Source of the DNA: Candidatus Saccharimonadota bacterium
GTDB taxonomy: Archaea; Nanohalarchaeota; Nanosalinia; Nanosalinales; Nanosalinaceae
Reading direction: 5' to 3'
DNA: 32,000 nt
Assembly (NCBI RefSeq): GCF_029232205.1
Contig: NZ_CP107255.1
Location: 180,001 to 212,000 of the forward strand
Made by a program: the position numbers and the translations under genes. Position 1 is the stretch's first letter. Every line of letters begins with the position of its first letter. This document shows positions 8,195 to 31,671 of the stretch, in pieces. The notes beneath the pieces were generated by a model. It was not told the origin of the DNA. It was given only the letters and a program-made list of their open reading frames with translations, and made no database searches.

Positions 8195-8236
8195 TTATTA
8201 GAAAAAAGTATTTCTTCATAAATCACCTGTGTAATT

Positions 8237-8767
8237 ATGATAACAGTTCTCAGATTGGGCCACCGCAGAGGAAGAGATGACAGAATTTCAACTCATGTAG
8301 GCCTTACAGCCCGTCAATGGGGGGCAGATAGAATAGTATATTCGGGAGAGAAAGATACCGGTATTCTTGATTCTCAGAGAGATATTATCGATCGCTGGGG
8401 CGGAGATACTGAGGTAGAGTACACTGAGAACTGGAAAAATGTTATCAGAGATTTTGAAGGCCTTTCCGTGCATCTGACAATGTACGGCGAAAAGATCAAC
8501 GAGAGAATCGAGGGCCTGAAGAAGGAGTTTGCTGAAGAAGAGGATCTCTTGATTGTTGTCGGTGCTGAAAAAGTTCCTCGCTGGGTCTACACGCATGTTG
8601 ACTACAATATTTCTGTAGGGAATCAGCCTCACAGCGAGATTGCGGCCCTGGCGGTTTTCATGGATAGGATTCAGGAAGGCCGATTAAAGGAAGGTTTTGA
8701 AGGTGCGGAGATAGAAGTTGAGCCGACTGAAGATAGAAAGATTACTAGAGAGCTTGATGAAGAGTAA
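8237..8767 (+). CDS. tRNA (cytidine56-2'-O)-methyltransferase aTrm56 (SPOUT)
   Basis: 176 aa. The N-terminus VLRLGHRRGRDDRISTHVGLTARQWGAD and the later motifs LTMYGE and NQPHSEIAALAVFMDR match the archaeal aTrm56 family. Confidence 0.88.
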   Translation: MITVLRLGHRRGRDDRISTHVGLTARQWGADRIVYSGEKDTGILDSQRDIIDRWGGDTEVEYTENWKNVIRDFEGLSVHLTMYGEKINERIEGLKKEFAEEEDLLIVVGAEKVPRWVYTHVDYNISVGNQPHSEIAALAVFMDRIQEGRLKEGFEGAEIEVEPTEDRKITRELDEE

Positions 8768-8770
8768 AAT

Positions 8771-9682: not shown

Positions 9683-9755
9683 GTTACTTCTTTTTGGTGT
9701 TTCTCTTTTATCGCTAATCAAAACACATTTATTTGTAACTTGAAAGTAGCATATT

Positions 9756-10124
9756 ATGGCGGAGTTAAACTACGATGATTTTAGAGGATACTTTAACGAA
9801 GATGATTCTGGAATGCACGTTGTTACTGATTCTCTGCCGCGTCTAAAGTTGAAAGATGAGCTTTCGCCGGAAGAGGCACCTCTTTATATTGATCTTGAGA
9901 CTGGTAGAGGAGTTTATCCTGAAGGCCTTGACCCGGAGGATGCTTACGAGGCAGCAAGTTACGCTCTTGACAAGGCAGGTAGTGATGCTGCAGTCCATAT
10001 TTCGCAGGATACTGAGGCCTGGCAGGAAGAGTTTTCAGAAATTGTCGGTGAAGATATCGAGCTAGGGCCTTCATGGCACCTTAATCTTGATAAGGAAGAA
10101 AGAAAGGCCTCTGCTAGACGATAA
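9756..10124 (+). CDS. hypothetical acidic protein
   Basis: 122-aa ORF with host-like acidic composition and no family recognised. It overlaps the convergent Trm11-like gene by 11 nt. Confidence 0.45.
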   Translation: MAELNYDDFRGYFNEDDSGMHVVTDSLPRLKLKDELSPEEAPLYIDLETGRGVYPEGLDPEDAYEAASYALDKAGSDAAVHISQDTEAWQEEFSEIVGEDIELGPSWHLNLDKEERKASARR

Positions 10125-11040
10125 AAATGTATCTTGTCAGCGACTTGTGAACGTATACCTCAAAGTCCGCTGAGTAAGGCCCTACTTCTTTTTCATTGTA
10201 CATGAAGACTGCTTTTCCGCTGTAATCTTCCAGAAATTCTATGAAGCTTTCTACCGCTTTCTCTGGTTTTTTGGAGGCCTTTCCGTATGGTAGATCTGTT
10301 ACTACTGCGTTGAATTCTTCCTCGAAAGTTTCGTTGATTTCTGCTACATCGCCCTGCCTGATATCGTGGCTGATTACGCCGTAGTTTTCGAGGTTTCTCT
10401 GGCAGCCGTCCACCATCTCTTTCTGTATGTCGAGGCCGTAGACTCCGATTCCGCAGAGGCCTGCTTCGATAAGTATTCCGCCTGTACCGCAGAAAGGATC
10501 CAGTAGTTTTTCTCCTGCTGATACTTCTGACAGGTTGACGAGTACTCTTGCGAGCACAGGGTCAAGAGATATTGGTGAGGAGAAAGGCCTTTCCTGGTTG
10601 GCTCTCTGCTGGTAAAGGCCTCTATCTACTTCCTGAACTATTTTTCCAATTACAAGTTTTTCTCCTGTGTAGTATGCCTTTATTTTTTCATCAGGGTTTT
10701 CCAGGTCTACTGAGTTTTCCTCCGTTGAGATTTTCTGGCCTATCTGTTTCTCCAGTTCCTTGCTTTCGAAGTCTTCGTCTGTCAGGTTCTGCACTCTGAC
10801 CGAGAAAGATTTTTCAGGCCTGTAATCTATTTCTAGTTTGTCTAGCTTGGTTTCGCATATTTTTTTTGTTACTTCATGTGTCAGGCCCAGTCTTTTGAGT
10901 TGTTCTGGGTGTTTTTCTGTTTCTGCGGTTCTTCCTTCTCTCTTTGGATCTTCTTCGATTTCCTGGCTTCTTAGAAATCCTTTGAGTTCTGCTTCTGCTA
11001 GTTCAAGGTTTTCTCCTGCTAGGAGATATGTGTAGGTCAT
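10114..11040 (-). CDS. THUMP-domain tRNA (guanine-N2)-methyltransferase, Trm11/Trm-G10-like
   Basis: 308 aa. N-terminal THUMP-like region followed by a class I SAM methyltransferase with LDPFCGTGGILIEAGL (motif I) and VVTDLPYGKAS (DPPY-type motif IV). Confidence 0.78.
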   Translation of the reverse strand: MTYTYLLAGENLELAEAELKGFLRSQEIEEDPKREGRTAETEKHPEQLKRLGLTHEVTKKICETKLDKLEIDYRPEKSFSVRVQNLTDEDFESKELEKQIGQKISTEENSVDLENPDEKIKAYYTGEKLVIGKIVQEVDRGLYQQRANQERPFSSPISLDPVLARVLVNLSEVSAGEKLLDPFCGTGGILIEAGLCGIGVYGLDIQKEMVDGCQRNLENYGVISHDIRQGDVAEINETFEEEFNAVVTDLPYGKASKKPEKAVESFIEFLEDYSGKAVFMYNEKEVGPYSADFEVYVHKSLTRYIFIV

Positions 11041-12048
11041 CTAGATTGATTCTTTGCCTCCAAGGCTTATGAAGGAAATGTATCCTATGACAACGTCTGA
11101 CCAGTAGGTTAGTATTCTGAATATTATGCTTGCTGCTAGTGCGACAGGCAGGCTGATACTGAAGAACAGGTTCAGTAGTGTGGCCATAACTGCTTCGTAG
11201 GCTCCTGTTCCTCCTGGTGTAGGTGTGAAGTTTGATACTGCTGCCAGAGGAAGCACGAAGAATACTGCTGCAAGATTTACGTGTATATCAAGCGCTAGAA
11301 GTGTGATATATAGAGTGAGGCTTTGGAACAGGTAGTAAATGTGGGCTATTAGGCTTGTCTCCAGAAGATGTCTGCTATCATTGCCTATGGTTTCAAAGGA
11401 TTCTTCTAAGACTTCAAAACGAGATTCTATACTCTCTACAACTTCTTCTCCTCTGTTCAAGATTTCGCTTATCTTGGTGGCAACCTGTAAAACTTTTTTC
11501 TCTATGGTGCCGGCCCTGAACCACAGTAGATAGCTGAAAGATCCTCCAATCACGAATATAGCTCCACTGGCGATCAAGGTTTTTGTGATGAGGCCCGTAA
11601 GTCTACCGAATAAGAATAGATAAGTTGCTCCTGCGGCCACAAATGTGAACGTAGGTATCGCATTAATTATATCTGAAGATATTACTGCGGAGAAGGCCTT
11701 CTCGTATTTCAGGTCTGTTTTTTTGGATATTATGTAGGCCATTGCTGGTTCTCCTCCGAACTGACCCATTGGTGTTACTTTGTTGAGGAAGTCTCCGGCC
11801 ATGAAAAGTCTGAAGTTCTGTGTGTATGTGTTGCCTGCGCCTACCTTGTTGAGGAAGCTGTGCCATGTGTTTCCCCAGACAAGATTGGGTACCAGGCCAG
11901 TGAGCAGCGCTAGCAGGATTAGTTTTTTGTCTGCGCCTTTTGCTGCTTCTAGAAATTTATTTATATCGGTTAATATGATTAGGGCGCCCAGAAATATTGT
12001 TGCAGCTGTAAACCAGGCAATTTGTTTGGTTTTGGGCGTCCATGCCAT
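11041..12048 (-). CDS. flippase-like / LPG-synthase-TM family (UPF0104) membrane protein, copy 1
   Basis: 335 aa, about 8 predicted TM helices, with conserved motifs GQFGGEPAMAY and FTPTPGGTGAYE typical of the PF03706/TIGR00374 family. It is a tandem paralog of 12073..13086. Confidence 0.75.
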   Translation of the reverse strand: MAWTPKTKQIAWFTAATIFLGALIILTDINKFLEAAKGADKKLILLALLTGLVPNLVWGNTWHSFLNKVGAGNTYTQNFRLFMAGDFLNKVTPMGQFGGEPAMAYIISKKTDLKYEKAFSAVISSDIINAIPTFTFVAAGATYLFLFGRLTGLITKTLIASGAIFVIGGSFSYLLWFRAGTIEKKVLQVATKISEILNRGEEVVESIESRFEVLEESFETIGNDSRHLLETSLIAHIYYLFQSLTLYITLLALDIHVNLAAVFFVLPLAAVSNFTPTPGGTGAYEAVMATLLNLFFSISLPVALAASIIFRILTYWSDVVIGYISFISLGGKESI

Positions 12049-12072
12049 AATATTTTTATTTGAACTGTGTTT

Positions 12073-13086
12073 TTAATTAGCTTTTTCTCGACCTATGCTT
12101 ATCATCGCTCCGTAACCTATGATCAGTCCAGGCCAGTAGGTGCAGAGTCTGAAGAGGATTCCTACTGCAATTGCTGTGGCGAAAGGTATCTGTGGGAATA
12201 GGGCTGCTGGCATTAGTGTTAGGATGGTTGCCAGTGTTGCTTCGTAGGCTCCTGAACCTCCTGGGGTAGGTGAGAAGTTGGATAAGGAGGATAGAGGCAG
12301 GATAAAGTAGAGTGGTGTGAAGTCGGTGTGGATGCCCATGGATGCGAGAATTAGGTACAGGCTGAAGACCTGGAATACGAAGTAGGCATGTGCGATAGAG
12401 GCCGTTCTAACTAGATGTCGAGGATCCTCTCCGATTCTTTCAAAGGCCTCCTCAACGTTTTCCAGTTTCTCATCCAGTTTTTCAACGTATTTTTCTCCTC
12501 GTCCAACCCGATCGGTGATCTTTCTCAGGCCTTTGGTTAGTGCGTTTTCGATTGTACCGGACTTGAACCATAGTGTGTATGCAATGGATCCTCCTATAAC
12601 TACTATCAGGAGGGATATGTAGATGGCTTGAGTTATTATGTCGTTTACGGAACCGAAAATTAGAAGGAATGCTGCTCCTCCTAGAACAAAAGTGAATATT
12701 GGAACTGAGTTTATTATGTCTGAGGAAAGTACTGCTGAGAATCCTTCTTCGTAGCTCAGGCCTGTGTTTTCTTTTATTACGTAGGCCATGAATGGTTCTC
12801 CTCCGAACTGGCCTAGTGGTGTTACAGAGTTCATGAAGTTGCCTGTCATGAATAGTTTGAATGTTTTTCTGTAGTTTACATTGGCGCCCATTTTGTTGAG
12901 GAAGCTGTGCCAGGTGTGTGTCCACACAAAGAATGGCAGTAGGCCTGTGAGAAGAGCTCCGATCAGATAGTAGGTATTTGCCTGGCTTACGGCCTCTATG
13001 AACTTGTTTATGTCTGCCATGTAGATTAGCACGGCTATTATTGCTGTTGATATTCCGAACCAGGCGATCTGTTTTTTAGTAGCCAT
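12073..13086 (-). CDS. flippase-like / LPG-synthase-TM family (UPF0104) membrane protein, copy 2
   Basis: 337 aa, collinear with copy 1 (KQIAWF..., TWHSFLNKMGA, GQFGGEPFMAY, SPTPGGSGAYE), roughly half identical by eye. Confidence 0.75.
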   Translation of the reverse strand: MATKKQIAWFGISTAIIAVLIYMADINKFIEAVSQANTYYLIGALLTGLLPFFVWTHTWHSFLNKMGANVNYRKTFKLFMTGNFMNSVTPLGQFGGEPFMAYVIKENTGLSYEEGFSAVLSSDIINSVPIFTFVLGGAAFLLIFGSVNDIITQAIYISLLIVVIGGSIAYTLWFKSGTIENALTKGLRKITDRVGRGEKYVEKLDEKLENVEEAFERIGEDPRHLVRTASIAHAYFVFQVFSLYLILASMGIHTDFTPLYFILPLSSLSNFSPTPGGSGAYEATLATILTLMPAALFPQIPFATAIAVGILFRLCTYWPGLIIGYGAMISIGREKAN

Positions 13087-13360
13087 ATCTATCTATGTTT
13101 CCGCATTTGCTGCAGGTATATTCTACTTTGCTTTTGTCTGATTTTATTCTTACTTCGCAGGTTCTTCCGGGTTTCATGTAGCTGTAGCAGTTGCTGCAGA
13201 ACTTCTTTTTCAGGTCTGAAGGTATTGAGACTTCTTCCTTCATTCCTATTTTCCGGGCCAGTTCCACGTATCTGTCTGCCAGTTCGTCTTCATGGCCTAT
13301 TCTTTTCTCTGCTAGCGTGAAAAGCCGTTCTATCCGTTCCTCTGCGATTGTTTTCGCCAC
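13076..13360 (-). CDS. rnp4: RNase P protein component 4 (Rpp21/Rnp4)
   Basis: 94 aa with a GTG start. N-terminal helical region (ERIERLFTLAEKRI...LADRYVELARKIGMK) followed by a zinc ribbon CSNC...(x)...CSKC, the Rpp21 architecture. It overlaps the next gene by 11 nt. Confidence 0.85.
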   Translation of the reverse strand: MAKTIAEERIERLFTLAEKRIGHEDELADRYVELARKIGMKEEVSIPSDLKKKFCSNCYSYMKPGRTCEVRIKSDKSKVEYTCSKCGNIDRYGY

Positions 13361-13399
13361 AGTTTCATAAGTTTAGGTAACAGTTTTTAAGTTAAGCAG

Positions 13400-14398
13400 A
13401 TGAGGATAAGCCATTACTTTGAATGGGAGGATTTGATTACTGGAGGCCATAAACAGTCCGTTAAGAACCAGAGAAAGATAATGGATAAACGAGGAATTGA
13501 TTATACTACTGAGCCTGATCTCTCCGCTGATATTCTTCACTTGAATAATATGGGGCCTAAGTCAATTTACTATGCCAGAAAGGCCCAGGAGCAGGGAGTT
13601 CCTGTGGTTGTCCATGCTCATCAGACTGCAGAGGATTTCCGTGAGAGTTTTGCCCTGTCGAATATGATTGCAAGGCCTATGAAGCCCTACTTGAAGTATG
13701 CCTATTCTCTTGCTGACCTTATAATCTGTCCTTCAGAGCATAACAGAGACGTCATCGAGGAGTATACAGATGTGCCGAAGAAGGTGATCAGTAATGGTTT
13801 TGATCCTGATATGCTGGAAGGTTTTGAGGATCTTAGAGATGAGTATCTGGAGAAGTACGATCTTGAACCGCCAGTAGTGTTCATGGTAGGTCACGTGATC
13901 AAGAGGAAAGGCCTGAAGTCGTTTATCGAGACTGCCAGGAAGATGCCTGATACAGATTTTGTCTGGTTTGGTTTTCTGAATCCGAGCGGCGAAGATACCT
14001 TTGTTGACTCTCTGCTTCAGAGCAGGGATACAAAGAATCTTGTAGAAGATGCGCCTGACAACTGCACCTTCACAGGTTATGTTGATGATATTAGAGGAGC
14101 CTACGCTGCTGGTGACATCTTTTTCTTCCCTACAAAGAACGAGAACGAGGGAATGGCCCTACTTGAGGCAATGGCCTGCGGTAAGCCGCCGGTAGTCAGA
14201 GATATTGAGACTTTTCAGTGGCTGGAGCACGGTGAGAACTGTTTGAAGGCCGAAGACGACTTTGTCTCTGTTCTGGAGAAAGCAATGGAGGAGAACGAAA
14301 TGCAGAGGCTTGGAGAGAATGCTCGGGAGAAAAGCCGTGAGTTTGAACTCGAGTCTATAGCGGATGAATTAGAGAAGGCCTACAGAGAGCTTCTCTAA
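13400..14398 (+). CDS. GT4-family glycosyltransferase
   Basis: 332 aa, paralog of 7202..8194, with GT-B C-terminal motif FFFPTKNENEGMALLEAMACGKPPV. Confidence 0.8.
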   Translation: MRISHYFEWEDLITGGHKQSVKNQRKIMDKRGIDYTTEPDLSADILHLNNMGPKSIYYARKAQEQGVPVVVHAHQTAEDFRESFALSNMIARPMKPYLKYAYSLADLIICPSEHNRDVIEEYTDVPKKVISNGFDPDMLEGFEDLRDEYLEKYDLEPPVVFMVGHVIKRKGLKSFIETARKMPDTDFVWFGFLNPSGEDTFVDSLLQSRDTKNLVEDAPDNCTFTGYVDDIRGAYAAGDIFFFPTKNENEGMALLEAMACGKPPVVRDIETFQWLEHGENCLKAEDDFVSVLEKAMEENEMQRLGENAREKSREFELESIADELEKAYRELL

Positions 14399-14484
14399 AA
14401 GACTTTTTCCAGGGTTTCAGCGTTTAAATAAAATATTTCTAGGTGGGCCGTTTAAAATACTGAATGCCAAATTCTCACTTATCT

Positions 14485-15546
14485 ATGAAAATCGGCTTCT
14501 TTACCGAGAGCTACTTCCCGAAGTATGATGGAGTGACTTACACTCTGAAGGCCTGGAAGGAGAGGCTTGAGGAAAGAGGCCACGAAGTGTATATTATGTA
14601 TCCTCAGAATCCTGAATATGATCCTGGGGACGGAGAGATACCTGTAAGATCGATTCCAAATCCTTTCTACGAAGGTTACAGAGCACCTTTCCCTGTGAGA
14701 GGTTCTAAACTACCTGATTTTGATATTGTCCACTGTCATGGGCCTATAACGCTGGGATGGTCAGGGTTATTGCAGGCCAAGCTTGAGGACAAGCCTTCGG
14801 TATATACTCATCATACGCCTATTGAGGAGTACTTTATCAATGCTGTAAAACTTCCTCTTCTAGCTAAAATATGTGAGAAGGTTTATCTACCGATTGAGAA
14901 TTTTTTCATGAGCAAATTTGACGTTGTCACGGCCTCGACAAGCAGAATTAACAGGAAGGTTGATTTCACCCGGCTACCTGTAGGCCTTGACATGGAGTTT
15001 TTCCAGCCGCAGGATGAATCTATACTTGATGAGATGGATGTTGAAAGGCCTGTGATCGGCTATTCTGGTAGACTGAGTCTTGAAAAAAATGTTGATAACC
15101 TGGTTTGCTTCGCCGATGAGTTTGATGGCTCTGTTGTTATTGTTGGCGAGGGCCCTCAGGAGAAGAAGTTGAAGGAGATGGCGGGAGATAATGTTTTCTT
15201 CCGTGATTTTCTGGATAGAGAGGATTTGCCAGGTTTTTATTCTGGCCTTGATGCCTTTGTAACTTCTTCTACAGGAGATACTTTGGGTCTTGCGCCTCTG
15301 GAGGCTAATTCTTGCGGTACTCCTGTTGTCGCTGCTGATAATCCTCCTTTTGATGAGACTATTGGCTCCCGGAATGGCGAGCGTTTTGAGCTTGGTGATT
15401 CCGAGTCTTTGTCCCGTGCAATTCATAAAGCACTGAACAATAGCTATGAATGTAGAAGTGCTGTGAAGGATTTTTCGCTTTCCAGCACTATTGAGCAGCT
15501 AGAGGATATTTACGAGGAGCTTGGTGAAAAGTATGGGCAGAGATAA
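14485..15546 (+). CDS. GT4-family glycosyltransferase
   Basis: The ORF is open from 14464, but MKIGFFTESYFPKYDGV (ATG at 14485) is the canonical GT4 N-terminus. C-terminal motif: STGDTLGLAPLEANSCGTPVV. Confidence 0.8.
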   Translation: MKIGFFTESYFPKYDGVTYTLKAWKERLEERGHEVYIMYPQNPEYDPGDGEIPVRSIPNPFYEGYRAPFPVRGSKLPDFDIVHCHGPITLGWSGLLQAKLEDKPSVYTHHTPIEEYFINAVKLPLLAKICEKVYLPIENFFMSKFDVVTASTSRINRKVDFTRLPVGLDMEFFQPQDESILDEMDVERPVIGYSGRLSLEKNVDNLVCFADEFDGSVVIVGEGPQEKKLKEMAGDNVFFRDFLDREDLPGFYSGLDAFVTSSTGDTLGLAPLEANSCGTPVVAADNPPFDETIGSRNGERFELGDSESLSRAIHKALNNSYECRSAVKDFSLSSTIEQLEDIYEELGEKYGQR

Positions 15547-22267: not shown

Positions 22268-24928
22268 TTAAAGGACTCTGTTGCCGAATTTTCTGGAGAG
22301 GACTCTTCTGTAGCTATATTCGAGGACTGTGAACACTCCTAGTACTGCTGCTACCTGTATCCAGTGCTGTGGGCCTAGAGGCACTACTCTAAAGACATCC
22401 GATAGCGGTGTGTAAAGGATTGCTAGATGGGTGAGTGATGCAAAGAGGATAGCTGCGATCAGGTACTTATTGTCTGTTAGTTTGAGGCCGTAGTCTCTTC
22501 TGATTACTTGGAACATCATTATTTCGAAGAATGCCAGGGCCATGAACAGCATTGTCTGGGCGTGTGCGAAGTTCTCAATGTTGAGGAAGAATACGGGCAG
22601 CATTACTAGTGCTGCGAGAGGCCCTGTTACCGCAATCATTCCAAGGATCTTTTTGTCGAGGATTGGCTGGTCTGGATCTCTCGGATTTCTCTCCATTATT
22701 CCCTCTACCTTTGGGTCTTCTCCCAGTGCTATTGCTGGCGGGCCGTCGCTTGCGAAGTTTACCCATAGGATCATTAACGCAGTTAGGACTACTGCGTCAC
22801 CGCTTGCAAAGTATTCTGGGTAGAAGAGGCCTCCTATAAGTGTGCCGAGGAATACGAACATTACTTCTCCTGAGTTAGTGGATAGAAGCTGGTTAGTAAC
22901 CTTTCTGATATTATCAAATATTGCTCGGCCTTCTGAAATTGCGTCTCTTATTGTTACGAAGTTGTCGTCCTGTAGTACCATGTCAGAGCTTTTCTTTGCG
23001 ACGTCTGTTCCTCTCTGGCCCATCGCTACACCTACATCCGAGTTTTTGAGGGCCGGCGCATCGTTTACTCCGTCTCCGGTCATTGCTACGTTGTAGCCCT
23101 GGGCCTGTAGTGCTTCAAGTATTCTTACTTTGTGTTCGGGGGAGACTCTTGCAAATATCTCGACTTCCATGACTTTTTCCTGAAGCTCTTCATCACTCAT
23201 TTCCTCTATTTCCGGGCCTCTCATTGCGCCTTCCGGGTTGAATCCGAGTTCCTTTCCGATGGCCTTTGCTGTTTCAATGTTGTCGCCTGTAGCCATTACC
23301 ACTCCGATACCTGCGTTTCTGCAGTCTCCTACTGCTTCTTTTACTTCTTCTCTGGCTGGATCCATCATTCCCTGGAGGCCCAGGAATACCATGTCTGACT
23401 CTATTTCTTCGTCCTCTTCGTCACCTTTGACTTCTTTTCTTGCGAATCCGAGTACTCTTAGTGCGTCTCTGGCGAACTCGTGGTTTTTGTCCTTCAGTTC
23501 CTGTCTTTTTTCGTCGGTCAGCTCTTTTTCCTCGCCGTCTTCAAGTATTCTGTCGCATCTTTCCAGTACTGCTCCTGGAGCACCCTTCATGTAGGCCTGA
23601 TTGTCCTCTGTTACCACAGTCATTTTTTTTCTGTCGGAGGAGAAAGGAATGCTCTTCTTTCTCTTCTTATTGTCTTCAAGGCCTGCTTTTTTGGCTGATA
23701 CAAGTAGCGCGATTTCTGTTGGTTCACCCATGAATCCATCTTCTGTCATCTCCGAGTTGTTGCAGTACATTCCACATTCAAGAAGTGGTTCAAGGTATTC
23801 TGAGTCTGTTTCATGTCCGTCTCTTTTGAATCGGCCTTCTGTAGAAGTTCCTGTGCCTGTTACCTGGAATTCTTCCCCCTGGAAGTACATGGTTTCGACA
23901 GTCATTGCGCCTTCTGTCAGAGTCCCGGTTTTATCTGTTACAATGTAGTTTACGGATCCAAGGGCCTCTACTACAGGAAGTCTCCTGACCAGCGCGTCTT
24001 TCTCCAGTAGTTTTCTGGATCCGAGGGCCAGGGTCAGTGTTACGATTGCAGGAAGTGATTCTGGTATTGCTGCGACGGAAAGGCCTATCGCCAGTATTAG
24101 TATGGTTATTGCGTCTGCTCCTGTGAGTGCAAACTGCAGGAGGGCTACGAATGAAATAATTCCTACTACGAGGGCGCCGATTCTTTTGCCCATTTTGTCA
24201 ACTTCTTCTTCAAAAGGTGTCTGGCCTTTTTCGGCCTCGTCAAGCTCCTCTGCGATGTCGCCTACTTCTGTATCCATTCCTGTGGCGGTGACAACTGCTT
24301 TCCCACGGCCTTTGACCACGTGCGTGTTCATGAAGACCATGTTTTTCCTATCCGCGACTGCGGAGTTTTCCTCTGACTGGCCTGGCTGCTTGGAGATTTC
24401 ATGGCTTTCTCCTGTAAGTGCTGATTCATCTACTTCCAGGGCATCGGCCTCTATCAGTCTTGCATCTGCAGGTACAGCATCTCCCTGCTCCAGAAATACA
24501 ATGTCTCCAGGAACTACATCTTTCGAGCTTATTTCCTTCTTTTTGCCCCCTCTCATTACTGTGGCATTAGGTTTAGCCATTTTTTTCAGGGCCTGTATCG
24601 ATTTCTCAGCCTTGTAATCCTGTATAAATCCGAAGGTTCCGTTTGCAATCAGAATCAAAAATATTACTCCAGCTTCTCTGTACTCTGGGCTGTGTTCTGG
24701 TAGAAGGCCGATTCCAAGTGAGAGAGCGCCTGCTACGAAAAGCAGGTAGATCAGGTTGTCCTGAAACTGGCTGAGAAATATCTTCAGAGGTGATGTGGAG
24801 TCGTCGCTTTCAATTACGTTTTTTCCTTCCTCTTCTATCCGGGATTCTGCTTCTTCCTGTGTCAGGCCTTCTTCCTCAGTTTCTAGATGTGATAGGACTT
24901 CTTTCAGAGGTTTGCTGTGGAGGCCCAT
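22268..24928 (-). CDS. P2-type cation-transporting ATPase (Ca2+/SERCA-PMCA-like)
   Basis: 886 aa with TGES, DKTGTLT, IPESLPAIVTLTLALG (P2A-like M4), MATGDN and TGDGVNDAPALK motifs. Confidence 0.93.
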   Translation of the reverse strand: MGLHSKPLKEVLSHLETEEEGLTQEEAESRIEEEGKNVIESDDSTSPLKIFLSQFQDNLIYLLFVAGALSLGIGLLPEHSPEYREAGVIFLILIANGTFGFIQDYKAEKSIQALKKMAKPNATVMRGGKKKEISSKDVVPGDIVFLEQGDAVPADARLIEADALEVDESALTGESHEISKQPGQSEENSAVADRKNMVFMNTHVVKGRGKAVVTATGMDTEVGDIAEELDEAEKGQTPFEEEVDKMGKRIGALVVGIISFVALLQFALTGADAITILILAIGLSVAAIPESLPAIVTLTLALGSRKLLEKDALVRRLPVVEALGSVNYIVTDKTGTLTEGAMTVETMYFQGEEFQVTGTGTSTEGRFKRDGHETDSEYLEPLLECGMYCNNSEMTEDGFMGEPTEIALLVSAKKAGLEDNKKRKKSIPFSSDRKKMTVVTEDNQAYMKGAPGAVLERCDRILEDGEEKELTDEKRQELKDKNHEFARDALRVLGFARKEVKGDEEDEEIESDMVFLGLQGMMDPAREEVKEAVGDCRNAGIGVVMATGDNIETAKAIGKELGFNPEGAMRGPEIEEMSDEELQEKVMEVEIFARVSPEHKVRILEALQAQGYNVAMTGDGVNDAPALKNSDVGVAMGQRGTDVAKKSSDMVLQDDNFVTIRDAISEGRAIFDNIRKVTNQLLSTNSGEVMFVFLGTLIGGLFYPEYFASGDAVVLTALMILWVNFASDGPPAIALGEDPKVEGIMERNPRDPDQPILDKKILGMIAVTGPLAALVMLPVFFLNIENFAHAQTMLFMALAFFEIMMFQVIRRDYGLKLTDNKYLIAAILFASLTHLAILYTPLSDVFRVVPLGPQHWIQVAAVLGVFTVLEYSYRRVLSRKFGNRVL

Positions 24929-24995: not shown

Positions 24996-25165
24996 AGCCA
25001 TGTGGCGCATGGCTTGTGATGATAAAACTTTCAGAAGTTTTGCGGCCGAAGCAACTATGTTGCTTCTTAAAGCACTTTTTCCGCAGGAAAAGTGCGGCGT
25101 CCGGGATCAGTGACGGATGTGACGATGCGGAAGGGGGTTAGAAAGTCGGTTGCACAACAACCGAC
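24996..25165. other. cluster of four perfect stem-loops in the ATPase/integrase divergent intergenic region
   Basis: H1 24996..25014 agccatg-tggcg-catggct. H2 25048..25066 gaagcaac-tat-gttgcttc. H3 25072..25095 gcactttt-tccgcagg-aaaagtgc. H4 25145..25165 gtcggttg-cacaa-caaccgac. Stems are 7-8 bp with no mismatches. No tRNA cloverleaf could be drawn. Confidence 0.7.
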
Positions 25166-25190
25166 CGACACGCATCGTGAAACAACAACC

Positions 25191-26726
25191 ATGACAAACT
25201 ACGACAGTTCCGACATACACAGAAGACTCGAAACCCTCAAAAACAAAAACTGCGTCTCACAACGCAACGCACAACTTCTCGACGAGTTCGTAGAAGAACT
25301 CCAGGCAAGAGACGGCACAAGCGACAGCAGAACAGTCTGGTACATCTCCAAATTCTCCACAATCCTACAACAATACCTTCGAAAAGACAGGTTCGAGAAA
25401 GACACACGGATCGACAGAACACTGGAACACGACCAGCTGGACGAACTCACCAAGTCCGACCTACTCGCAGTAATCGGCGTGATGAAGAAACTGCCGATGA
25501 ACGACCTCTGGACAGAAAGAGCAGAAACCAAAGACGGAATCCTCACACCACTACAGGCTAAAGAAAGGCTTTCAGAGGAAGCATTCAACAGCCTGGAAAA
25601 GATCGACTCCGACTCCATGAAATACAAGGACTACGAACCCAGCGAAGAAATCTTCAACCAACTCCAAGACTACTCTGCAGCAAAAGTAGAAGACGGCGAC
25701 TACAAGCTTACAGAGTTCGGAGAGAACATCAAAGATGTCAGCGAACCTGAGAAGTATGCAGAGAAAACCATGAACGGGTTCAAGACCGCCTTCAAGATGT
25801 TTCTCAAACTCCGCCACCCCTTGAAGATGGACAGACCACGGAGAGTCAAGAGAATCATCCAGTCAGGAATCCTCAAAGGCAACACAGACGCAGACAGAAA
25901 AACCGAACTACACCTGTTCAGCCCCGAACAAATCTGGAAAATGGTTGAGGCAGCGAGAAACCCTAGAGACGCTCTACTGCCAATCCTATGTCTGGACGCA
26001 GGAGCCAGGAACAAGGAAATCAGGAAAGTAAAGCTCTCCGACATCGAAAAGCAGTCCGAAACATGGATAGTCGAGTTCATCGACTCCAAAAACGGAAAAC
26101 CGCCAAGAGACCTGCCACTGACACACTGTATCGAACAGCTACGGGCATGGCTCGAAAGCCACCCACGGAAAGACGATCCTGACGCTCCACTGTTCGTAAC
26201 ACTTAACGACAAGGGCGACGGAGAGAAAGGCAGCGAACTCAAGAAAGAAAACATCAACAAGATCCTGAAACGGTTAGCCAAGAGAGCAGACGTAGTAGAC
26301 AATCCAGAAACTGTCAAAGTCTACGATTTCAGGCACTCATCCGCCACATTCAGAGGCACAGAGCAGGACTGGGGAGTATCCAGGATGATGTACTGGTATG
26401 CGTGGAAAAAGCCAGACCGGGCGAAAACCTACTGCCACGAGGATAACAAGCGGATGACAGAAGCTATCTTGAAAGACAAAGGAATCAAGACCGAGGACAA
26501 CAGCAATAACTCGATGCAGATGCAGGAATGCCCACGCTGCGAGGAAAAACGACCCGCCAACGCCGAATACTGCCCAAAATGCTCTCTACCTTTGGACAGC
26601 GAGACAGCCATGAGAGACGCAGACCTCAAGAAAGCAGCCAAAATCCTCGTAGACATGAAACTTGACGAAAAAATCGAAGACGAAGAACTCAAAGGACGCC
26701 TACAACGAGTCAGAGAAGGAATCTAA
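25191..26726 (+). CDS. tyrosine recombinase / phage-type integrase with C-terminal zinc ribbon
   Basis: Catalytic-domain motifs LDAGARNKEI (Arg I), VYDFRHSSATF (HxxR-type box) and a late Tyr (RAKTYCH). C-terminal CPRC-x11-CPKC ribbon. The ORF is open from a GTG at 25092, but that start lies inside stem-loop H3 and the leader crosses H4, so I prefer the ATG at 25191 (MTNYDSS...). Confidence 0.85.
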   Translation: MTNYDSSDIHRRLETLKNKNCVSQRNAQLLDEFVEELQARDGTSDSRTVWYISKFSTILQQYLRKDRFEKDTRIDRTLEHDQLDELTKSDLLAVIGVMKKLPMNDLWTERAETKDGILTPLQAKERLSEEAFNSLEKIDSDSMKYKDYEPSEEIFNQLQDYSAAKVEDGDYKLTEFGENIKDVSEPEKYAEKTMNGFKTAFKMFLKLRHPLKMDRPRRVKRIIQSGILKGNTDADRKTELHLFSPEQIWKMVEAARNPRDALLPILCLDAGARNKEIRKVKLSDIEKQSETWIVEFIDSKNGKPPRDLPLTHCIEQLRAWLESHPRKDDPDAPLFVTLNDKGDGEKGSELKKENINKILKRLAKRADVVDNPETVKVYDFRHSSATFRGTEQDWGVSRMMYWYAWKKPDRAKTYCHEDNKRMTEAILKDKGIKTEDNSNNSMQMQECPRCEEKRPANAEYCPKCSLPLDSETAMRDADLKKAAKILVDMKLDEKIEDEELKGRLQRVREGI

Positions 26727-27385: not shown

Positions 27386-27526
27386 ATGAGCAAAAAATTA
27401 GCTTTCGGTCTGGCAGTCCTCTTGAGCCTTGGATTTACTTCTATGGCTATGGTCCAGCCTCAGCAAGGACAGATGAATCAGTCGATGATGCAGGAGCATA
27501 TGCAACAGATGCAGCAAATGCAGTAG
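27386..27526 (+). CDS. small secreted Met/Gln-rich peptide (possible Cu(I)-binding 'Mets-motif' protein), terminated by a TAG that is followed by 21 more in-frame Met-rich codons
   Basis: MSKKLAFGLAVLLSLGFTSMAM (signal-peptide-like) followed by VQPQQGQMNQSMMQEHMQQMQQMQ*. A GGAG-containing purine tract lies about 8 nt upstream of the ATG at 27386. After the TAG at 27524..27526 the frame continues RMNRSGMEQGMQDGMMGGVQI to a second TAG at 27590..27592. Confidence 0.5.
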   Translation: MSKKLAFGLAVLLSLGFTSMAMVQPQQGQMNQSMMQEHMQQMQQMQ

Positions 27527-27679: not shown

Positions 27680-27943
27680 CTACCCATCGAATTCATCCAA
27701 TATTCTTTCCCCATTTTTTGTAAGTCTCAGGTATTTTGGCTTTCCTTCTGGGTTGATGTGTTCTAGGTAGTCTTCTTCTCGAAGTAGTTCGATATGTTTT
27801 CTTGCGGCAACATGGCTCATGTCAAGTTTATCTGCTATTTCACTTAGATATATTCCGTCCTCCTGTTTTTCCTTTACTATCTGGATTATCTCTCTGCGTG
27901 TGTCTGCGCCTTTTGAAAAGTAGAAAAGTACGGATTCATCCAT
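27680..27943 (-). CDS. winged-helix (ArsR/TrmB-like) transcriptional regulator
   Basis: 87 aa. TRREIIQIV......GIYLSEIADKLDMSHVAARKHIELLREEDYLE....EGKPKYLRLT shows the HTH-plus-wing pattern. It lies 4 nt downstream of the small membrane protein gene. Confidence 0.8.
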   Translation of the reverse strand: MDESVLFYFSKGADTRREIIQIVKEKQEDGIYLSEIADKLDMSHVAARKHIELLREEDYLEHINPEGKPKYLRLTKNGERILDEFDG

Positions 27944-27947
27944 ACCT

Positions 27948-28253
27948 TTATTCCACCTTTTCCCTGATCTTCTTCATCGATGTGTAGAGGCCATAAGAAG
28001 CATAGCTCAGGCTTGCAGCTCCAGCGACCACACCTAATTCAAGAAGAAGATTGTAAATCGGCTCTGGAATTCTAAGAAATACTTGGAGGACTTTCAGCCA
28101 TTCGTGCATTCCAAGACCTATAGCGGCAAGTAGGAAGAATACCCAGTACTTTCCTCTATTGGTTTCTTCCGAGAGTCGGTATGTATAATACACAGCTATT
28201 CCGAATAGAACTGAGGAAAGAATCACCAGAACAAGGCTGACAGTATCTACCAT
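27948..28253 (-). CDS. small 3-TM membrane protein, co-transcribed with the wHTH regulator
   Basis: 101 aa with three hydrophobic segments (VSLVLVILSSVLFGIAVYY, WVFFLLAAIGLGM, LLLELGVVAGAASLSYA). A leaderless-type TATA sits 26-31 nt upstream. Confidence 0.6.
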   Translation of the reverse strand: MVDTVSLVLVILSSVLFGIAVYYTYRLSEETNRGKYWVFFLLAAIGLGMHEWLKVLQVFLRIPEPIYNLLLELGVVAGAASLSYASYGLYTSMKKIREKVE

Positions 28254-28354: not shown

Positions 28355-28861
28355 ATGCATAGAGGTCTGATCAGCGGATTTAAGTCTTCTTTCGACTCTT
28401 TTTGGGCTGCAGTAGCAGTAATCGCTGTCTCAAGTATGTTTTATCTGGTTCTTACCTTGAGTAGTTTTCCAAATTATTCACTGGAGATGTTAAATGCAAG
28501 CATCCTGTATTTGGATGAGGCTTTCTTAGCTCTCAACTGGAATGTCTTCAATACCGCTGGATACGCCGGAATTTTTCTCTCTGTAGTTTACTCAGTGTTT
28601 TCAGGTGTTCTTTTAGTAAACCTTTACCAATCTCTAAAAATCAATGGCATATCTAATATCAAGAAAAGCGGAGGAATGTTCCCAGCCTTCTTGGCCGGAG
28701 GATGTGCAGGTTGCGGAGCAGGAATTCTAGGTTTCTTTGGACTTCTAGGCATAGCCTCAGCATTACCTTTCCAGGGAAACGGTCTGAAAGTCGGGAGCAT
28801 CGCTCTGATGGCGGTAGCAATATCAAGTATCGGCAATCCCGAAAAATGCTCGATAGACTGA
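28355..28861 (+). CDS. 4-TM membrane protein with intramembrane CxxC (GGCAGCGAG)
   Basis: 168 aa with about four hydrophobic segments. The only cysteines are C-A-G-C inside the glycine-rich third segment (FLAGGCAGCGAGILGFFGLLG) and one C-terminal Cys (PEKCSID). I do not recognise the family. Confidence 0.65.
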   Translation: MHRGLISGFKSSFDSFWAAVAVIAVSSMFYLVLTLSSFPNYSLEMLNASILYLDEAFLALNWNVFNTAGYAGIFLSVVYSVFSGVLLVNLYQSLKINGISNIKKSGGMFPAFLAGGCAGCGAGILGFFGLLGIASALPFQGNGLKVGSIALMAVAISSIGNPEKCSID

Positions 28862-28938: not shown

Positions 28939-29358
28939 GTGAGTTTATACCGCGATTTTCAGGACTTCTTAGCACAGTATCCGCTAGACCCCTACACCGT
29001 TTTCCGGACAGGATTAGGCCTAATGATACTTCTATCTGGAATCCATAAACTGGTCGATCCTGTAGTCTGGTCCAGCTACATAGCTCCAACATTCGCCGAC
29101 TTATTGAATCAGATAGATCTCCAGAACTCAGTTTTCATGCAGATCAACGGTGTTTTTGAAATCATTTTCGGCACCAGTATTCTACTCGACAAATACACTA
29201 CAGCAGCGGCAGGGGTCGTCACACTGTCTTTAGCGGGGATTATAGTGAACCTTGGACTGGCAGGAACAGGATATCTCGATATAATAATCAGGGACTTAGG
29301 ACTGCTACTGCTTTCAACAGGAGTAACTTTACAGGCAGTCCGGAGGGAGAAAAAATGA
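28939..29358 (+). CDS. DoxX-family membrane protein
   Basis: 139 aa with 4 TM helices. FRTGLGLMILLSGIHKL and the overall pattern resemble DoxX/DoxD-like proteins. GTG start, and an ATGA overlap with the next gene. Confidence 0.72.
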   Translation: MSLYRDFQDFLAQYPLDPYTVFRTGLGLMILLSGIHKLVDPVVWSSYIAPTFADLLNQIDLQNSVFMQINGVFEIIFGTSILLDKYTTAAAGVVTLSLAGIIVNLGLAGTGYLDIIIRDLGLLLLSTGVTLQAVRREKK

Positions 29359-30452
29359 CCGAAGAAATACAGATTAATCTTGATGTAAGACATGCGATAA
29401 TTGGAGTATTCATACTTGGAATCTTAACCGGCTTCCTGGCAGGATTAGTTACATCAACTCAGCTTTCAGGAGCCGAAAATGTTGCACAACAGCCTTCACA
29501 GGAAAATAATAATCCTTCTCCGCGGCCTACCGGTCAGGCTGATTCAGAAGTAGATATTAGCTTCGAAACAGAAGGGGAGCCTGTGATCGGTCAGGAGGAT
29601 GCACCGGTCACGATCGCTTACTGGGGAGACTACCAGTGTCCTTTCTGTAAACGATTCGAGCAGAGGACATTCCCTCAGCTGAAAAACAACTACATTTCAG
29701 AAGGAAAAGTAAGGTTCGTATTCAAAGACTTCCAGTTCCTCGGTCCGGATTCAAAAACCGCTGGAATAGCCTCTGAATGCGTCTGGAAACAGGTCGGAAA
29801 TTCTAACCCTGATGCCTTCTGGAACTGGCACGCCTCGATGTTCGACAACCAAGACGGAGAAAACAGCGGCTGGGGTAACAAGCAGGACATAACTTCGATG
29901 ACGCAACAAGTTTCAGGAGTAAATGCAGACCAACTTTCAAGCTGCATGGAGAACAACCAGCAGAAGTTCCAAGACGAAATGGATAAAGACAAAAGTGAAG
30001 GACAGTCTGTAGGAGTCACAGGAACACCAGGATTCGTAATATACAAGACAGGTTCAAACTCTGGACAGCAGATTACCGGTGCACAGCCATTCAGCCGGTT
30101 TGAATCAGTTATCAGCCAAGTTCAAAACTCTGATCCAGGAACCGAGACAACAGGAGAAAACGAACAGGTTGACAAGACCATACAAGTCTCAGGGACAGAG
30201 TACAGTTTCTCACCTTCCACAATAAAAGTCGGAAAAGGCCAGACTGTGGAAATAGAATTTAGCAACACAGGCAGTATTCCCCACGACATGAAGATTCCAA
30301 GCCTTGGAACAGGTTCAAAAGTTATACAGCCAGGTCAAACAGACTCCTTCACATTTACAGCACCAAAATCAGGAACCTTCCCTATAAGCTTCGAATGCAG
30401 CCTCCCAGGTCACGCAGCGAACGGGATGAAAGGACAGCTAAAGACAGGTTGA
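29355..30452 (+). CDS. membrane-anchored DsbA-like thiol:disulfide oxidoreductase fused to a C-terminal type-1-copper cupredoxin domain
   Basis: N-terminal TM anchor (AIIGVFILGILTGFLAGLV). Thioredoxin-fold DsbA/BdbD-like domain with WGDYQCPFCKRF active site and cis-Pro loop VGVTGTPGFVI. After a linker comes a cupredoxin with candidate ligands IPHDM ... FECSLPGHAANGM (His, Cys, His, Met). Confidence 0.85.
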   Translation: MTEEIQINLDVRHAIIGVFILGILTGFLAGLVTSTQLSGAENVAQQPSQENNNPSPRPTGQADSEVDISFETEGEPVIGQEDAPVTIAYWGDYQCPFCKRFEQRTFPQLKNNYISEGKVRFVFKDFQFLGPDSKTAGIASECVWKQVGNSNPDAFWNWHASMFDNQDGENSGWGNKQDITSMTQQVSGVNADQLSSCMENNQQKFQDEMDKDKSEGQSVGVTGTPGFVIYKTGSNSGQQITGAQPFSRFESVISQVQNSDPGTETTGENEQVDKTIQVSGTEYSFSPSTIKVGKGQTVEIEFSNTGSIPHDMKIPSLGTGSKVIQPGQTDSFTFTAPKSGTFPISFECSLPGHAANGMKGQLKTG

Positions 30453-30458
30453 GAGATC

Positions 30459-31046
30459 GTGGGGGAATTTGAATGTGACAAGTGCGATAGAGGCTTCAGT
30501 TCCGAGGAGGCGTTGGAGCAGCATAAACAGGACTACGATCACAGCAAGCTGAAGGAATGCTCGAAATGCGGTGAAAAATTCAGATCCAAGGAAAAATACA
30601 GTGAGCACAAGAAAACGCATTGGGGTCCGGTACGAAGACACATCTTCGCTGACCATTATGTTTTAGGAGGACTAGCTCTGATAGGCCTTGTAATCGCGCT
30701 GGGACTGGGCTTAAACGCACTTCCTTCTGGCGGCTCCAGTCAAGAATCCATACCTGAAGATGTAGGCCAGACTGTCAGTATAACCGGAGGAGATTTCTAC
30801 TTCAATCCTTCCACGAGCCGGATAAACGATACAGGCAAGATAAGAGTGAGGTTTACCAATCAGGGAGGTGTTAGTCACAATCTCAGACTGACCGGTATCG
30901 GGAAGGGGACAAGTGTCATCCCGCCAGGCCAATCTGAAGCATTCACCTTCAACGCTTCAAAAGACGGGGAAACACCTATAGCGTTTGAATGCACGCTACC
31001 AGGTCATGCCGAAAGAGGCATGGTAGGAAGATTCACTTCAACATAG
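30459..31046 (+). CDS. two N-terminal classical C2H2 zinc fingers + single TM + extracytoplasmic cupredoxin domain
   Basis: ZF1 CDKC-x12-H-x5-H (FECDKCDRGFSSEEALEQHKQDYDH). ZF2 CSKC-x12-H-x3-H (KECSKCGEKFRSKEKYSEHKKTH). A basic stretch is followed by a TM helix (VLGGLALIGLVIALGLGL). The cupredoxin carries VSHNL ... FECTLPGHAERGM and is a paralog of the C-terminal domain of the previous gene. GTG start. Confidence 0.8.
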   Translation: MGEFECDKCDRGFSSEEALEQHKQDYDHSKLKECSKCGEKFRSKEKYSEHKKTHWGPVRRHIFADHYVLGGLALIGLVIALGLGLNALPSGGSSQESIPEDVGQTVSITGGDFYFNPSTSRINDTGKIRVRFTNQGGVSHNLRLTGIGKGTSVIPPGQSEAFTFNASKDGETPIAFECTLPGHAERGMVGRFTST

Positions 31047-31059
31047 AGGAGAACAAAAC

Positions 31060-31671
31060 ATGGAAGAATGCAAATACTGTGATAAAGAATTCGATAAAAA
31101 GAGGAGAAAGCTTCAGCACGAATTGAAAGAACACGAGGGAGAAATGTCTAGCCATGACAGAGATGGGAAAAAGAGAGAATTAAGCAAGTTGAGAGAGAAG
31201 GATAAGACGGCGAAACAGAAACGGAATAGGAAGATAATCTACAGCGGGATTGGTCTAGTATTGCTAGCTGGCCTGGTTTTCGGAGGCTACCAGGTTTCCC
31301 AATACGCTGATTCTCTACAGCCTGAGAAAGATGCCGATAAAGGAATAGGAACTCCTATTCACTGGCACGCAAATTACCAACTCACAGTCTGCGGAGAAAA
31401 CCAGATCCTCCGAGGAGGACCTACTAGAGCACATACACACGGTCAGAGCCAGTTCCATCTTGAAGGAGTGAGAACAAGCGAGGAACAGGCAACTTTAGAT
31501 GGGATTGTAGATAGTTTGGGCGGCCAACTGGAAAATAATTCAGTGATGGGTCAAACCAGCTGCAACGGAGAACCGGCTGAACTCACAGTTAAGGCGAATG
31601 GCCAGGAACTTGAAAATCCGCTGACTTACATCCCTAGGGATGGCGATAACATAGTAATCAGGTTAGAATGA
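31060..31671 (+). CDS. N-terminal C2H2 zinc finger + single TM + extracytoplasmic His/Cys-rich domain
   Basis: CKYC-x12-H-x4-H (ECKYCDKEFDKKRRKLQHELKEH), a long Lys/Arg-rich linker and a TM helix (IYSGIGLVLLAGLVFGGY). The outside domain has IHWHANYQLTVCGE, RAHTHGQSQFHLEG, a second Cys (TSCNGEP) and a tail LTVKANGQEL..P..YIPRDGDNIVIRLE. Confidence 0.7.
   Translation: MEECKYCDKEFDKKRRKLQHELKEHEGEMSSHDRDGKKRELSKLREKDKTAKQKRNRKIIYSGIGLVLLAGLVFGGYQVSQYADSLQPEKDADKGIGTPIHWHANYQLTVCGENQILRGGPTRAHTHGQSQFHLEGVRTSEEQATLDGIVDSLGGQLENNSVMGQTSCNGEPAELTVKANGQELENPLTYIPRDGDNIVIRLE

Follow-up and report, generated by a model that had tools for sequence, protein, structure and literature searches.

The gene at positions 29355 to 30452 of the window (the whole 32,000-nucleotide stretch of contig NZ_CP107255.1 analysed here) encodes a protein in which a DsbA-type thiol-disulfide oxidoreductase domain and a cupredoxin domain are joined behind a single membrane anchor. 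We find that this DsbA-cupredoxin fusion is a real single-chain protein family, with invariant catalytic and predicted copper-ligand residues and a conserved operon, and we tentatively propose that its tethered type-1 copper site may serve as a built-in electron acceptor for the CPFC dithiol of the DsbA domain, a reading that we consider credible but somewhat short of probable. The protein (WEL23091.1) derives from Candidatus Nanohalovita haloferacivicina BNXNv, a cultivated nanohaloarchaeon living on Haloferax, and its database label is solely “thioredoxin domain-containing protein”. Each of the two domains is well known, yet the fusion, its operon and a membrane-protein family linked to it are undescribed in the literature searched, and the fusion goes unmentioned in the organism's genome paper (PMC10266531).

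Architecture of the fusion protein

The gene and its parts, all on the + strand, are as follows.

29355..30452, +: whole gene, membrane-anchored DsbA-cupredoxin fusion (365 amino acids, WEL23091.1 / WP_347721007.1)
29394..29459, +: N-terminal transmembrane anchor, approximately residues 14-35 (hydrophobic stretch; modelled helix at 11-28)
29463-29564, +: low-complexity Pro/Ser/Gln tether, residues 37-70 (poorly conserved, mean pairwise identity 0.32)
29565..30128, +: DsbA / Thioredoxin_4 domain, residues 71-258 (Pfam, BdbD in PDB, Foldseek 3eu4)
30129..30170, +: acidic, variable interdomain linker, residues 259-272 (identity 0.29; low model confidence at 262-269)
30171..30449, +: type-1 (blue) copper cupredoxin domain, residues 273-365 (Pfam; four invariant ligands)

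The reading frame opens with ATG and contains no internal stop, and a homologue search of 5.8 billion proteins, clustered at 90% identity and drawn from NCBI, JGI, ENA and Logan assemblies, returned 12 further clusters that share the two-domain architecture and range from 91% to 44% in identity. Every named fusion-bearing cluster belongs to the Nanohaloarchaea, and one two-domain homologue lies on a 916-kb genome contig. The notion that the fusion is an artefact, produced from two neighbouring genes by a frameshift in sequencing or a join in assembly, has next to no chance of being correct and is rejected, since the frame is unbroken through 30120-30180, the first cupredoxin strand (VSGTEYSFSPST) is conserved directly after the linker, the 12 further clusters come from independent assemblies and sequencing projects, and we found no evidence favouring such an artefact.

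In an AlphaFold2 (AF2) model of the fusion, with an overall predicted local distance difference test score (pLDDT) of 81.8, an N-terminal helix at residues 11-28 is followed by the DsbA fold and a beta-sandwich. The model is confident within each domain, and of low confidence for the linker (pLDDT below 50 at residues 262-269), the last 12 residues and the relative orientation of the domains (predicted template modelling score, pTM, 0.62). Among solved structures searched with Foldseek, none spans both halves of the protein (query TM-score at most 0.45).

The DsbA half matches Pfam Thioredoxin_4 over residues 72-230 (E 2.7e-26; 93.2 bits against a gathering cut-off of 23.2) and Pfam DSBA (E 1.1e-13; 51.9 bits against a cut-off of 25.6). 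Its active-site motif, C95-P-F-C98 (nucleotides 29637-29648), and the T224-P225 loop (nucleotides 30024-30029) are invariant in 13 aligned full-length homologues; AF2 begins a helix at residue 96 and models a thioredoxin fold with an inserted helical domain at pLDDT 95-98 over residues 70-250. The best solved fold match is BdbD of Bacillus subtilis (3eu4; TM-score 0.85 on the target, root-mean-square deviation 2.6 Å), and BdbD is also the best sequence match in PDB (E 4.9e-28), while ScsC, DsbG and TlpA-like proteins give far weaker matches or none; ScsC chains reach E values of 1.3e-7 to 1.6e-7, and ScsC structures were recovered by the fold search. A second pair of cysteines, C142 and C197, co-varies across the alignment, both being lost only in P0011, and since they are kept or lost together they suggest a structural disulfide. 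Membership of ScsC was rejected because BdbD is much closer and the operon holds no DsbD-family Pfam match. The Rcas_1661 thioredoxin-like (seleno)lipoprotein family (NF041057) was likewise set aside, at 114.8 bits against a required 190 and with a transmembrane anchor in the place of a lipobox.

By sequence criteria, the C-terminal half is a genuine type-1 copper cupredoxin domain. It matches Pfam Cupredoxin_1 at residues 270-345 (E 6e-12; 45.9 bits against a cut-off of 27) and Copper-bind at residues 276-363 (E 1e-7; 32.7 bits against 21.2). The four predicted copper ligands, H310 (30282-30284), C348 (30396-30398), H353 (30411-30413) and M358 (30426-30428), are invariant in the 13 homologues, and in the domain profile the upstream histidine and the C-x4-H-x4-M loop align with the type-1 copper domains of the nitrite reductases 6tfd and 2dv6, as well as with azurin and auracyanin. 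Two narrower families do not accommodate the domain: the copper-resistance cupredoxin CopI (NF051440) scores 39.5 against 280 bits, matches residues 321-363 alone and has a His/Met-rich segment that is absent here, and halocyanin (TIGR03102) scores 24.9 against 93.8 bits.

A preliminary description of this DNA, made from the letters alone, had proposed a single polypeptide uniting a DsbA/BdbD-type domain (CPFC, TGTP) with a cupredoxin bearing a candidate full type-1 ligand set (H, C, H, M). The uninterrupted reading frame, the recurrence of the architecture, the Pfam and BdbD matches and the invariance of the residues concerned bear out this proposal. Of the two ways in which it was thought that the proposal might fail, a frameshift or join at 30120-30180 was looked for and excluded, and a metal-free Ig-like C-terminal domain is rejected by the Pfam matches and the alignment of copper-site ligands.

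Distribution and evolution of the family

Conservation is uneven along the protein, with a mean pairwise identity of 0.74 (minimum 0.66) over the cupredoxin half against 0.59 (minimum 0.31) over the DsbA half and 0.29 over the linker. The DsbA domains split into two clades. Those of the window type cluster with stand-alone nanohaloarchaeal DsbAs, to which they are 62-70% identical, and with halobacterial DsbAs, whereas those of the P0013/P0015 type cluster with unfused DsbAs of Woesearchaeota and Nanoarchaeota (46-51%) and are 38-41% identical to the window type. Across both types the cupredoxin domains are 72-78% identical, and the same cupredoxin has thus been kept on, or moved onto, two DsbA scaffolds, which argues that the physical linkage itself has been selected. 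Taken together, the better-conserved cupredoxin half, the drifting linker and the two DsbA scaffolds indicate a fusion under selection.

Fused and unfused copies of DsbA coexist in the same genomes. In a Nanosalina genome (GCA_042218365.1), the fused P0004 and the stand-alone P0010 are sister sequences (loci L002 8001-9089 and L087 8001-8864), and this pattern of closest relatives is repeated for P0012 with P0005 and for P0014 with P0006/P0008. Such mutual proximity of fused and unfused paralogues suggests recurrent duplication, domain loss or gene conversion between them.

A HMMER search of representatives returned 8,984 matches to the wider cupredoxin family, and among the best 150 the sole carrier of a DsbA domain was the fusion family's own representative; a word-index search with the cupredoxin domain alone gave a single match. 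A stand-alone cupredoxin (P0121), 69% identical, occurs without a fused DsbA. Scanning a genome collection by the CPFC pattern yielded, among the matches listed, mostly unfused DsbA loci, which we used for comparison of gene neighbourhoods. A DNA pattern for VSGTEYSFSPSTI matched the window and seven loci, while the metagenome and viral collections gave no match. A protein-guided metagenome scan recovered only cupredoxins of at most 52% identity, whose neighbours included no DsbA, DoxX, CxxC protein or 203-amino-acid protein of the kinds described below, and the nearest cupredoxin loci of non-halophiles have no DsbA in their vicinity.

The operon and its genomic surroundings

The genes flanking the fusion are listed below, with cellular locations as predicted.

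27680..27943, −: 87-amino-acid winged-helix (HTH_20/ArsR-like helix-turn-helix) regulator, divergent, without cysteine (Pfam; kept in L001, L002, L003/4 and L085)
27948..28253, −: 101-amino-acid protein with three transmembrane helices, co-oriented with the regulator, with a conserved GLG[MS]HEWLK motif
28355..28861, +: 168-amino-acid protein with four transmembrane helices (the CxxC protein), of an unannotated family, with an invariant G-C-x-x-C in the third helix, an LP[FWY]xG loop and a C-terminal cysteine
28939..29358, +: DoxX-family membrane protein without cysteine (Pfam DoxX, E 9.6e-7), its stop overlapping the ATG of the fusion by 4 nucleotides
30459..31046, +: second cupredoxin, with two cytoplasmic C2H2 fingers, a transmembrane helix and an external type-1 cupredoxin with the full H/C/H/M set
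31060..31671, +: 203-amino-acid protein with a C2H2-like finger, a transmembrane helix and an HWH...HxH...HxE ectodomain, of no Pfam family

On the + strand, the CxxC protein is followed by DoxX, the fusion, the second cupredoxin, the 203-amino-acid protein and a DUF63 gene, and this operon diverges from the regulator and its three-helix companion. Its core is kept in L001, L002, L003/4, L085, L086 and L088, with a MauE-type protein added in some. We saw no metal-sensing residues in the regulator, and a scan for bacterial-type promoters and terminators gave counts at chance level, the patterns being bacterial and the organism archaeal. DoxX lies directly upstream of the fusion in L001, L002, L003/4, L085 and L086, the overlap with the start codon of the fusion is present at all loci for which the junction was read at both ends, and the two genes are translationally coupled in the window operon. 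Nevertheless, the fusion-adjacent DoxX proteins contain no cysteine in our alignment and therefore cannot be DsbB-like thiol partners, a role for which we reject them; any part that they play would go via a bound cofactor or as a scaffold.

A second cupredoxin gene lies inside the operon of the fusion at every locus, and directly downstream in most. The finger-cupredoxin form found in the window, whose cupredoxin domain is 39% identical to the fused one, is kept directly downstream in L001-L004, and a lipoprotein or transmembrane-anchored cupredoxin takes its place in L085, L086 and L088. The window protein is labelled “C2H2-type zinc finger protein” by NCBI and “plastocyanin” by JGI, and its layout is such that it could be a membrane-tethered regulator sensing external copper or redox state. 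The 203-amino-acid protein is conserved in L001 and L002, and homologues stand beside unfused DsbA genes (L059 7770-8555, L076 1933-2574, L062 8442-9035 and L012 8304-8912) in DPANN archaea, a Methanosarcinales archaeon and a Kaiserbacteria (CPR) genome; its histidine-rich ectodomain is probably a metal-binding domain. In a woesearchaeon (L060 3-2037; CAYIQA010000023.1), a DsbA (CPFC), a thioredoxin lipoprotein (CPHC), a cupredoxin lipoprotein, DoxX, a membrane protein and a type-II P-type ATPase are encoded in that order, the cupredoxin lipoprotein carrying a CuA-type motif (CSVYCGEGHSEM, C-x3-C-x3-H-x2-M), and judging from its gene content this locus is a split version of the fusion gene set, with DsbA unfused.

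The CxxC protein, encoded two genes upstream of the fusion and labelled “hypothetical”, has no match in Pfam, NCBIfam or PDB, and a Pfam scan of nine family members and a profile search of PDB for the family likewise gave none. Its gene is found in the fusion operon of the window, L001, L002 and L088 (immediately 3' of the fusion in the latter) and is missing from the L003/4 and L085 clusters. Homologues also adjoin unfused DsbA genes in Nanosalina, in a ribosomal-protein neighbourhood, and stand beside DsbA in four Halobacteria, Nanoarchaeota, Woesearchaeota, a Methanosarcinales archaeon and an alphaproteobacterium (homologues at L087 7344-7907, L005 7746-8279, L059 8540-9106, L076 1382-1933, L041 7462-8082 and L088 2159-2737). 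Under the positive-inside rule, applied to nine members, both termini are predicted to lie inside (K+R density 0.14 at each against 0.02 in loop 1), a topology that would place the C-terminal cysteine in the cytoplasm and the CxxC motif mid-membrane; an AF2 model, built from four near-identical sequences, reached a pLDDT of 41. The CxxC protein may be a thiol or metal relay partner of DsbA, whether as a new kind of DsbA partner or as a conduit for a thiophilic metal, and its predicted layout resembles relays of the CcdA/DsbD or MerC/MerT type more closely than it does DsbB or VKOR. The preliminary description had remarked that neither DsbB nor VKOR is visible here, and indeed no window open reading frame of at least 100 amino acids contains a Pfam domain of either kind. 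The premise of a DsbA without any partner was, however, overstated, given the CxxC membrane protein in the same operon and the homologues that adjoin unfused DsbA genes in many lineages.

Three of six independent loci carry, no more than 8 kb from the cluster, a heavy-metal-type P-type ATPase, a YHS permease, a DUF411 (CopG-like) or DUF305 gene, or TRASH/PadR regulators. L001 is surrounded by DUF411, DUF305 and DUF302 genes, another DsbA, PadR, a P-type ATPase and a YHS permease; L002 by a YHS permease, PadR, a P-type ATPase and one more cupredoxin; and L003 by an HMA-domain ATPase, a TRASH regulator and a YHS permease, with an ArsR and CDF pair and an integrase farther along. L085 has a flavoprotein, redoxin genes and an ArsR and CDF pair instead, and the window has an integrase and, at 22268-24928, a type-II P-type ATPase, the nearest P-type ATPase, which is a cation pump and not a copper pump. 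The association with metal islands is consequently real yet not universal, and could reflect detoxification or the supply of copper to surface cuproproteins. Given that the surroundings differ between genomes, the cluster may be mobile. The phage-integrase-family gene of the window (25092-26726, +), which encodes 544 amino acids including a long N-terminal extension, is some 1.6 kb away from the cluster, and another stands near the cluster in L003 (13856-15118); the genome paper predicted no genomic islands in BNXNv (PMC10266531).

Three further observations concern neighbouring sequence. At 27386-27526 (+) the window encodes a short, secreted peptide whose tail (MNQSMMQEHMQQMQQMQ) is rich in Met and Gln and resembles the Met motifs that bind Cu(I); L001 and L002 have a different small transmembrane protein at that position. 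In two nanohaloarchaeal loci, an NDH-2-like Pyr_redox_2 flavoprotein gene (L085 6444-7514; L089 1172-2650) adjoins DoxX and cupredoxin genes, a neighbourhood that hints at a minimal membrane electron path in a group described as devoid of respiratory complexes. Finally, three group-1 glycosyltransferases and two tandem LPG_synthase_TM paralogues at 7202-15546 of the window, unrelated to the fusion, likely form a locus for cell-surface or lipid modification.

Copper as a possible electron acceptor, and rival readings

We view the fusion as a two-centre redox enzyme, tethered to the membrane, presumably on its external side, and with a flexible linker of approximately 14 residues between the centres. 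Under the reading that we tentatively favour, the DsbA domain would oxidise exported cysteines and so become reduced; its two electrons would depart singly to Cu(II) of the tethered cupredoxin, which would pass them to the separately encoded second cupredoxin and thence to a final acceptor, possibly O2 or the oxidase chain of the host. The outcome would be quinone-independent disulfide formation in an organism without a respiratory chain. According to its genome analysis, the organism has no NADH dehydrogenase complex, no cytochrome oxidase and no terminal reductase, and lives in obligate association with an aerobic host (PMC10266531), and this reported absence of respiratory complexes makes an electron sink other than quinone more attractive.

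Several lines of evidence argue for such a reading. Both domains are recognised by their family models, with catalytic and ligand residues all invariant; the higher conservation of the cupredoxin half, the drift of the linker and the joining of one cupredoxin to two DsbA subtypes point to selection on the linkage; the woesearchaeal locus encodes the split gene set side by side; and the second cupredoxin gene present in the operon at every locus would provide a plausible relay. Additionally, the closest solved relative of the DsbA half is an oxidase, BdbD, with ScsC and DsbG much weaker, those of the cupredoxin half are the tethered electron-transfer domains of the nitrite reductases 6tfd and 2dv6, and the window holds no DsbB or VKOR domain. 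DsbA-type disulfides typically have potentials of approximately -75 to -130 mV and type-1 copper sites of approximately +180 to +680 mV, values at which the flow of electrons from thiol to Cu(II) would be downhill. It is, however, by architecture that electron transfer from CPFC to copper, and its direction, are proposed.

Comparison with characterised systems shows both the precedents for such an arrangement and its novelty. With BdbD and the DsbA-like oxidases of Gram-positive bacteria and actinobacteria, the fusion shares a thioredoxin fold with a helical insert, the CPxC motif, a predicted Thr-cisPro loop and a membrane tether with a presumed external location, but BdbD depends on quinone and on BdbC, a homologue of DsbB, for its recycling, and lacks the C-terminal copper domain and the second, co-varying cysteine pair. 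The nitrite reductase of Hyphomicrobium denitrificans (2dv6) and 6tfd, to which the cupredoxin domain is closest in sequence among solved structures and with which its ligands align, similarly have a type-1 cupredoxin covalently tethered to the enzyme with which it exchanges electrons, although that enzyme is a copper nitrite reductase core and not a metal-free thiol-disulfide oxidoreductase. The design of a thioredoxin-fold disulfide carrier fused to its recycling module is also shared by VKOR-thioredoxin and VKOR-DsbA proteins and by QSOX, in which a thioredoxin and an Erv domain are joined. The QSOX and VKOR modules, however, possess their own cysteine pair together with flavin adenine dinucleotide (FAD) or quinone and have no homology to cupredoxins; a type-1 copper site has neither a cysteine pair nor such a cofactor, and thiol-to-copper chemistry would consequently be new. 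VKOR-DsbA fusions are functional, and DsbAs recycled without a known partner are exemplified by those of Staphylococcus aureus and clostridia (PMC12453122).

Other observations weigh against copper as the acceptor. AF2 gives no confident docking of the two domains, and because the copper site takes one electron and has no pair of cysteines with which a disulfide could be exchanged, the transfer would have to pass through a radical intermediate; we found no precedent in the literature searched for a DsbA passing electrons to copper. As terminal acceptor, O2 and the host oxidase chain are no more than candidates. The operon itself contains a candidate membrane partner in the CxxC protein, the predicted topology of which looks more like a conduit for reductant, following the logic of CcdA/DsbD, than for oxidant. 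Furthermore, the same genomes keep an unfused DsbA paired with the CxxC protein, which makes the fusion an accessory paralogue and not the housekeeping oxidase, and the copper and metal genes beside half of the loci fit a role in copper stress equally well. The fuller proposal of a copper-based, quinone-independent system, in which copper recycles DsbA, the second cupredoxin delivers electrons to O2 or to the halocyanin and terminal-oxidase chain of Haloferax, and the CxxC protein is a new DsbA partner, is accordingly one that we regard as doubtful.

A rather unlikely alternative, though the best placed of its rivals, is that the fusion defends against copper stress, combining features of Scs and CopI, such that each domain would deal separately with the consequences of excess copper and no electrons would pass from one to the other: the DsbA domain would repair or prevent wrong disulfides formed by copper catalysis, or buffer Cu(I) on CPFC, while the cupredoxin would bind or oxidise copper at the surface. 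In the Scs system of Salmonella, Proteus and Caulobacter, a copper-responsive cluster ties the DsbA-like ScsC to copper and to a copper-binding periplasmic protein (PMC10907172); ScsC is copper-induced, binds Cu(I) and Cu(II) and hands Cu(I) to CueP (PMC10907172; PMC8900818), and its structures are among those recovered with the fusion by fold. The Scs components are nonetheless separate proteins, CueP is not a cupredoxin, ScsC resembles the fusion far less than does BdbD (1e-7 against 5e-28), and the DsbD-like ScsB that keeps ScsC reduced has no homologue in the fusion operon by Pfam. The CopI model of NCBIfam matches the C-terminal copper loop, where CopI, a periplasmic cupredoxin of copper resistance, has a similar CxxPGHxxxGM sequence, but CopI has no thioredoxin fold attached, the fusion scores well short of the CopI cut-off, and the His/Met-rich regions by which CopI captures copper are absent (PMC13308877). 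Genomic context is similarly divided. Three of the six loci are near copper or metal genes, including the HMA domain in L003, ArsR and CDF pairs flank L003 and L085, the cluster diverges from an ArsR-like regulator, and a Met/Gln-rich secreted peptide is encoded upstream; yet the regulator and its membrane companion lack cysteines or a recognisable metal site, the peptide is not conserved in L001 or L002, the nearest P-type ATPase of the window is a type-II cation pump, and adjacency to copper exporters could equally mean the supply of copper to external cuproproteins. A defensive role also leaves the covalent linkage across two DsbA subtypes unexplained.

Less likely still is a reductive relay, in which the CxxC protein, in the manner of CcdA, DsbD or ScsB, would move electrons from cytoplasmic thioredoxin to the DsbA domain and on to the tethered copper, so that surface cupredoxins are held as Cu(I) or electrons are dumped outside a purely fermentative cell. 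This would make use of the invariant mid-membrane CxxC and the C-terminal cysteine predicted to be cytoplasmic, and it is consistent with the linkage of this gene to DsbA across archaea, with its presence in four fusion operons, with the transmembrane-anchored redoxin and peroxiredoxin-type gene added in L085, and with the NDH-2-like flavoprotein adjoining DoxX and cupredoxins in L085 and L089. However, the topology is a prediction and the model of the CxxC protein is of low confidence, its gene is missing from two of the clusters (L003/4 and L085), the DsbA domain is closer to oxidases than to reductases, and a physiological need for such an export of electrons would have to be assumed.

We judge it very unlikely that the thioredoxin-fold domain acts in cupredoxin maturation, as TlpA or Sco would, by keeping the copper-ligand cysteines of its own or neighbouring cupredoxins unoxidised for the external insertion of copper. 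The fusion is never without accompanying cupredoxin genes, several loci have copper exporters close by, and in the woesearchaeal locus a DsbA and the CPHC thioredoxin lipoprotein precede a cupredoxin with a CuA-type motif, CuA-type sites being known to require a TlpA-like reductase. Type-1 domains, however, have one cysteine each and hence no intramolecular disulfide to reduce, the domain is of DsbA type with a helical insert and not of TlpA/Sco type, a stoichiometric, covalently attached chaperone would be uneconomical for a step performed once, and the P0121 cupredoxin exists without a fused DsbA.

The fusion bears on the question of how DsbA enzymes are recycled without DsbB, VKOR, quinones or a respiratory chain, and it would give blue copper proteins a function in an organism without a chain in which they could take part. 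It also draws attention to an unannotated family of CxxC membrane proteins linked by gene order to DsbA across Halobacteria and DPANN archaea. As a one-electron copper centre and CPFC are placed on one chain in a cultivated DPANN archaeon, together with a defined co-encoded set of proteins, the question becomes a concrete experimental one; the soluble ectodomain is of modest size, and spectroscopy should reveal its copper centre. Were the copper-stress role correct, archaea would gain their first described Scs-like system, whereas if copper does accept the electrons of the CPFC dithiol and these travel on to the oxidase chain of the host, the oxidative protein folding of the symbiont, or part of its redox balance, would be driven by the respiration of its host.

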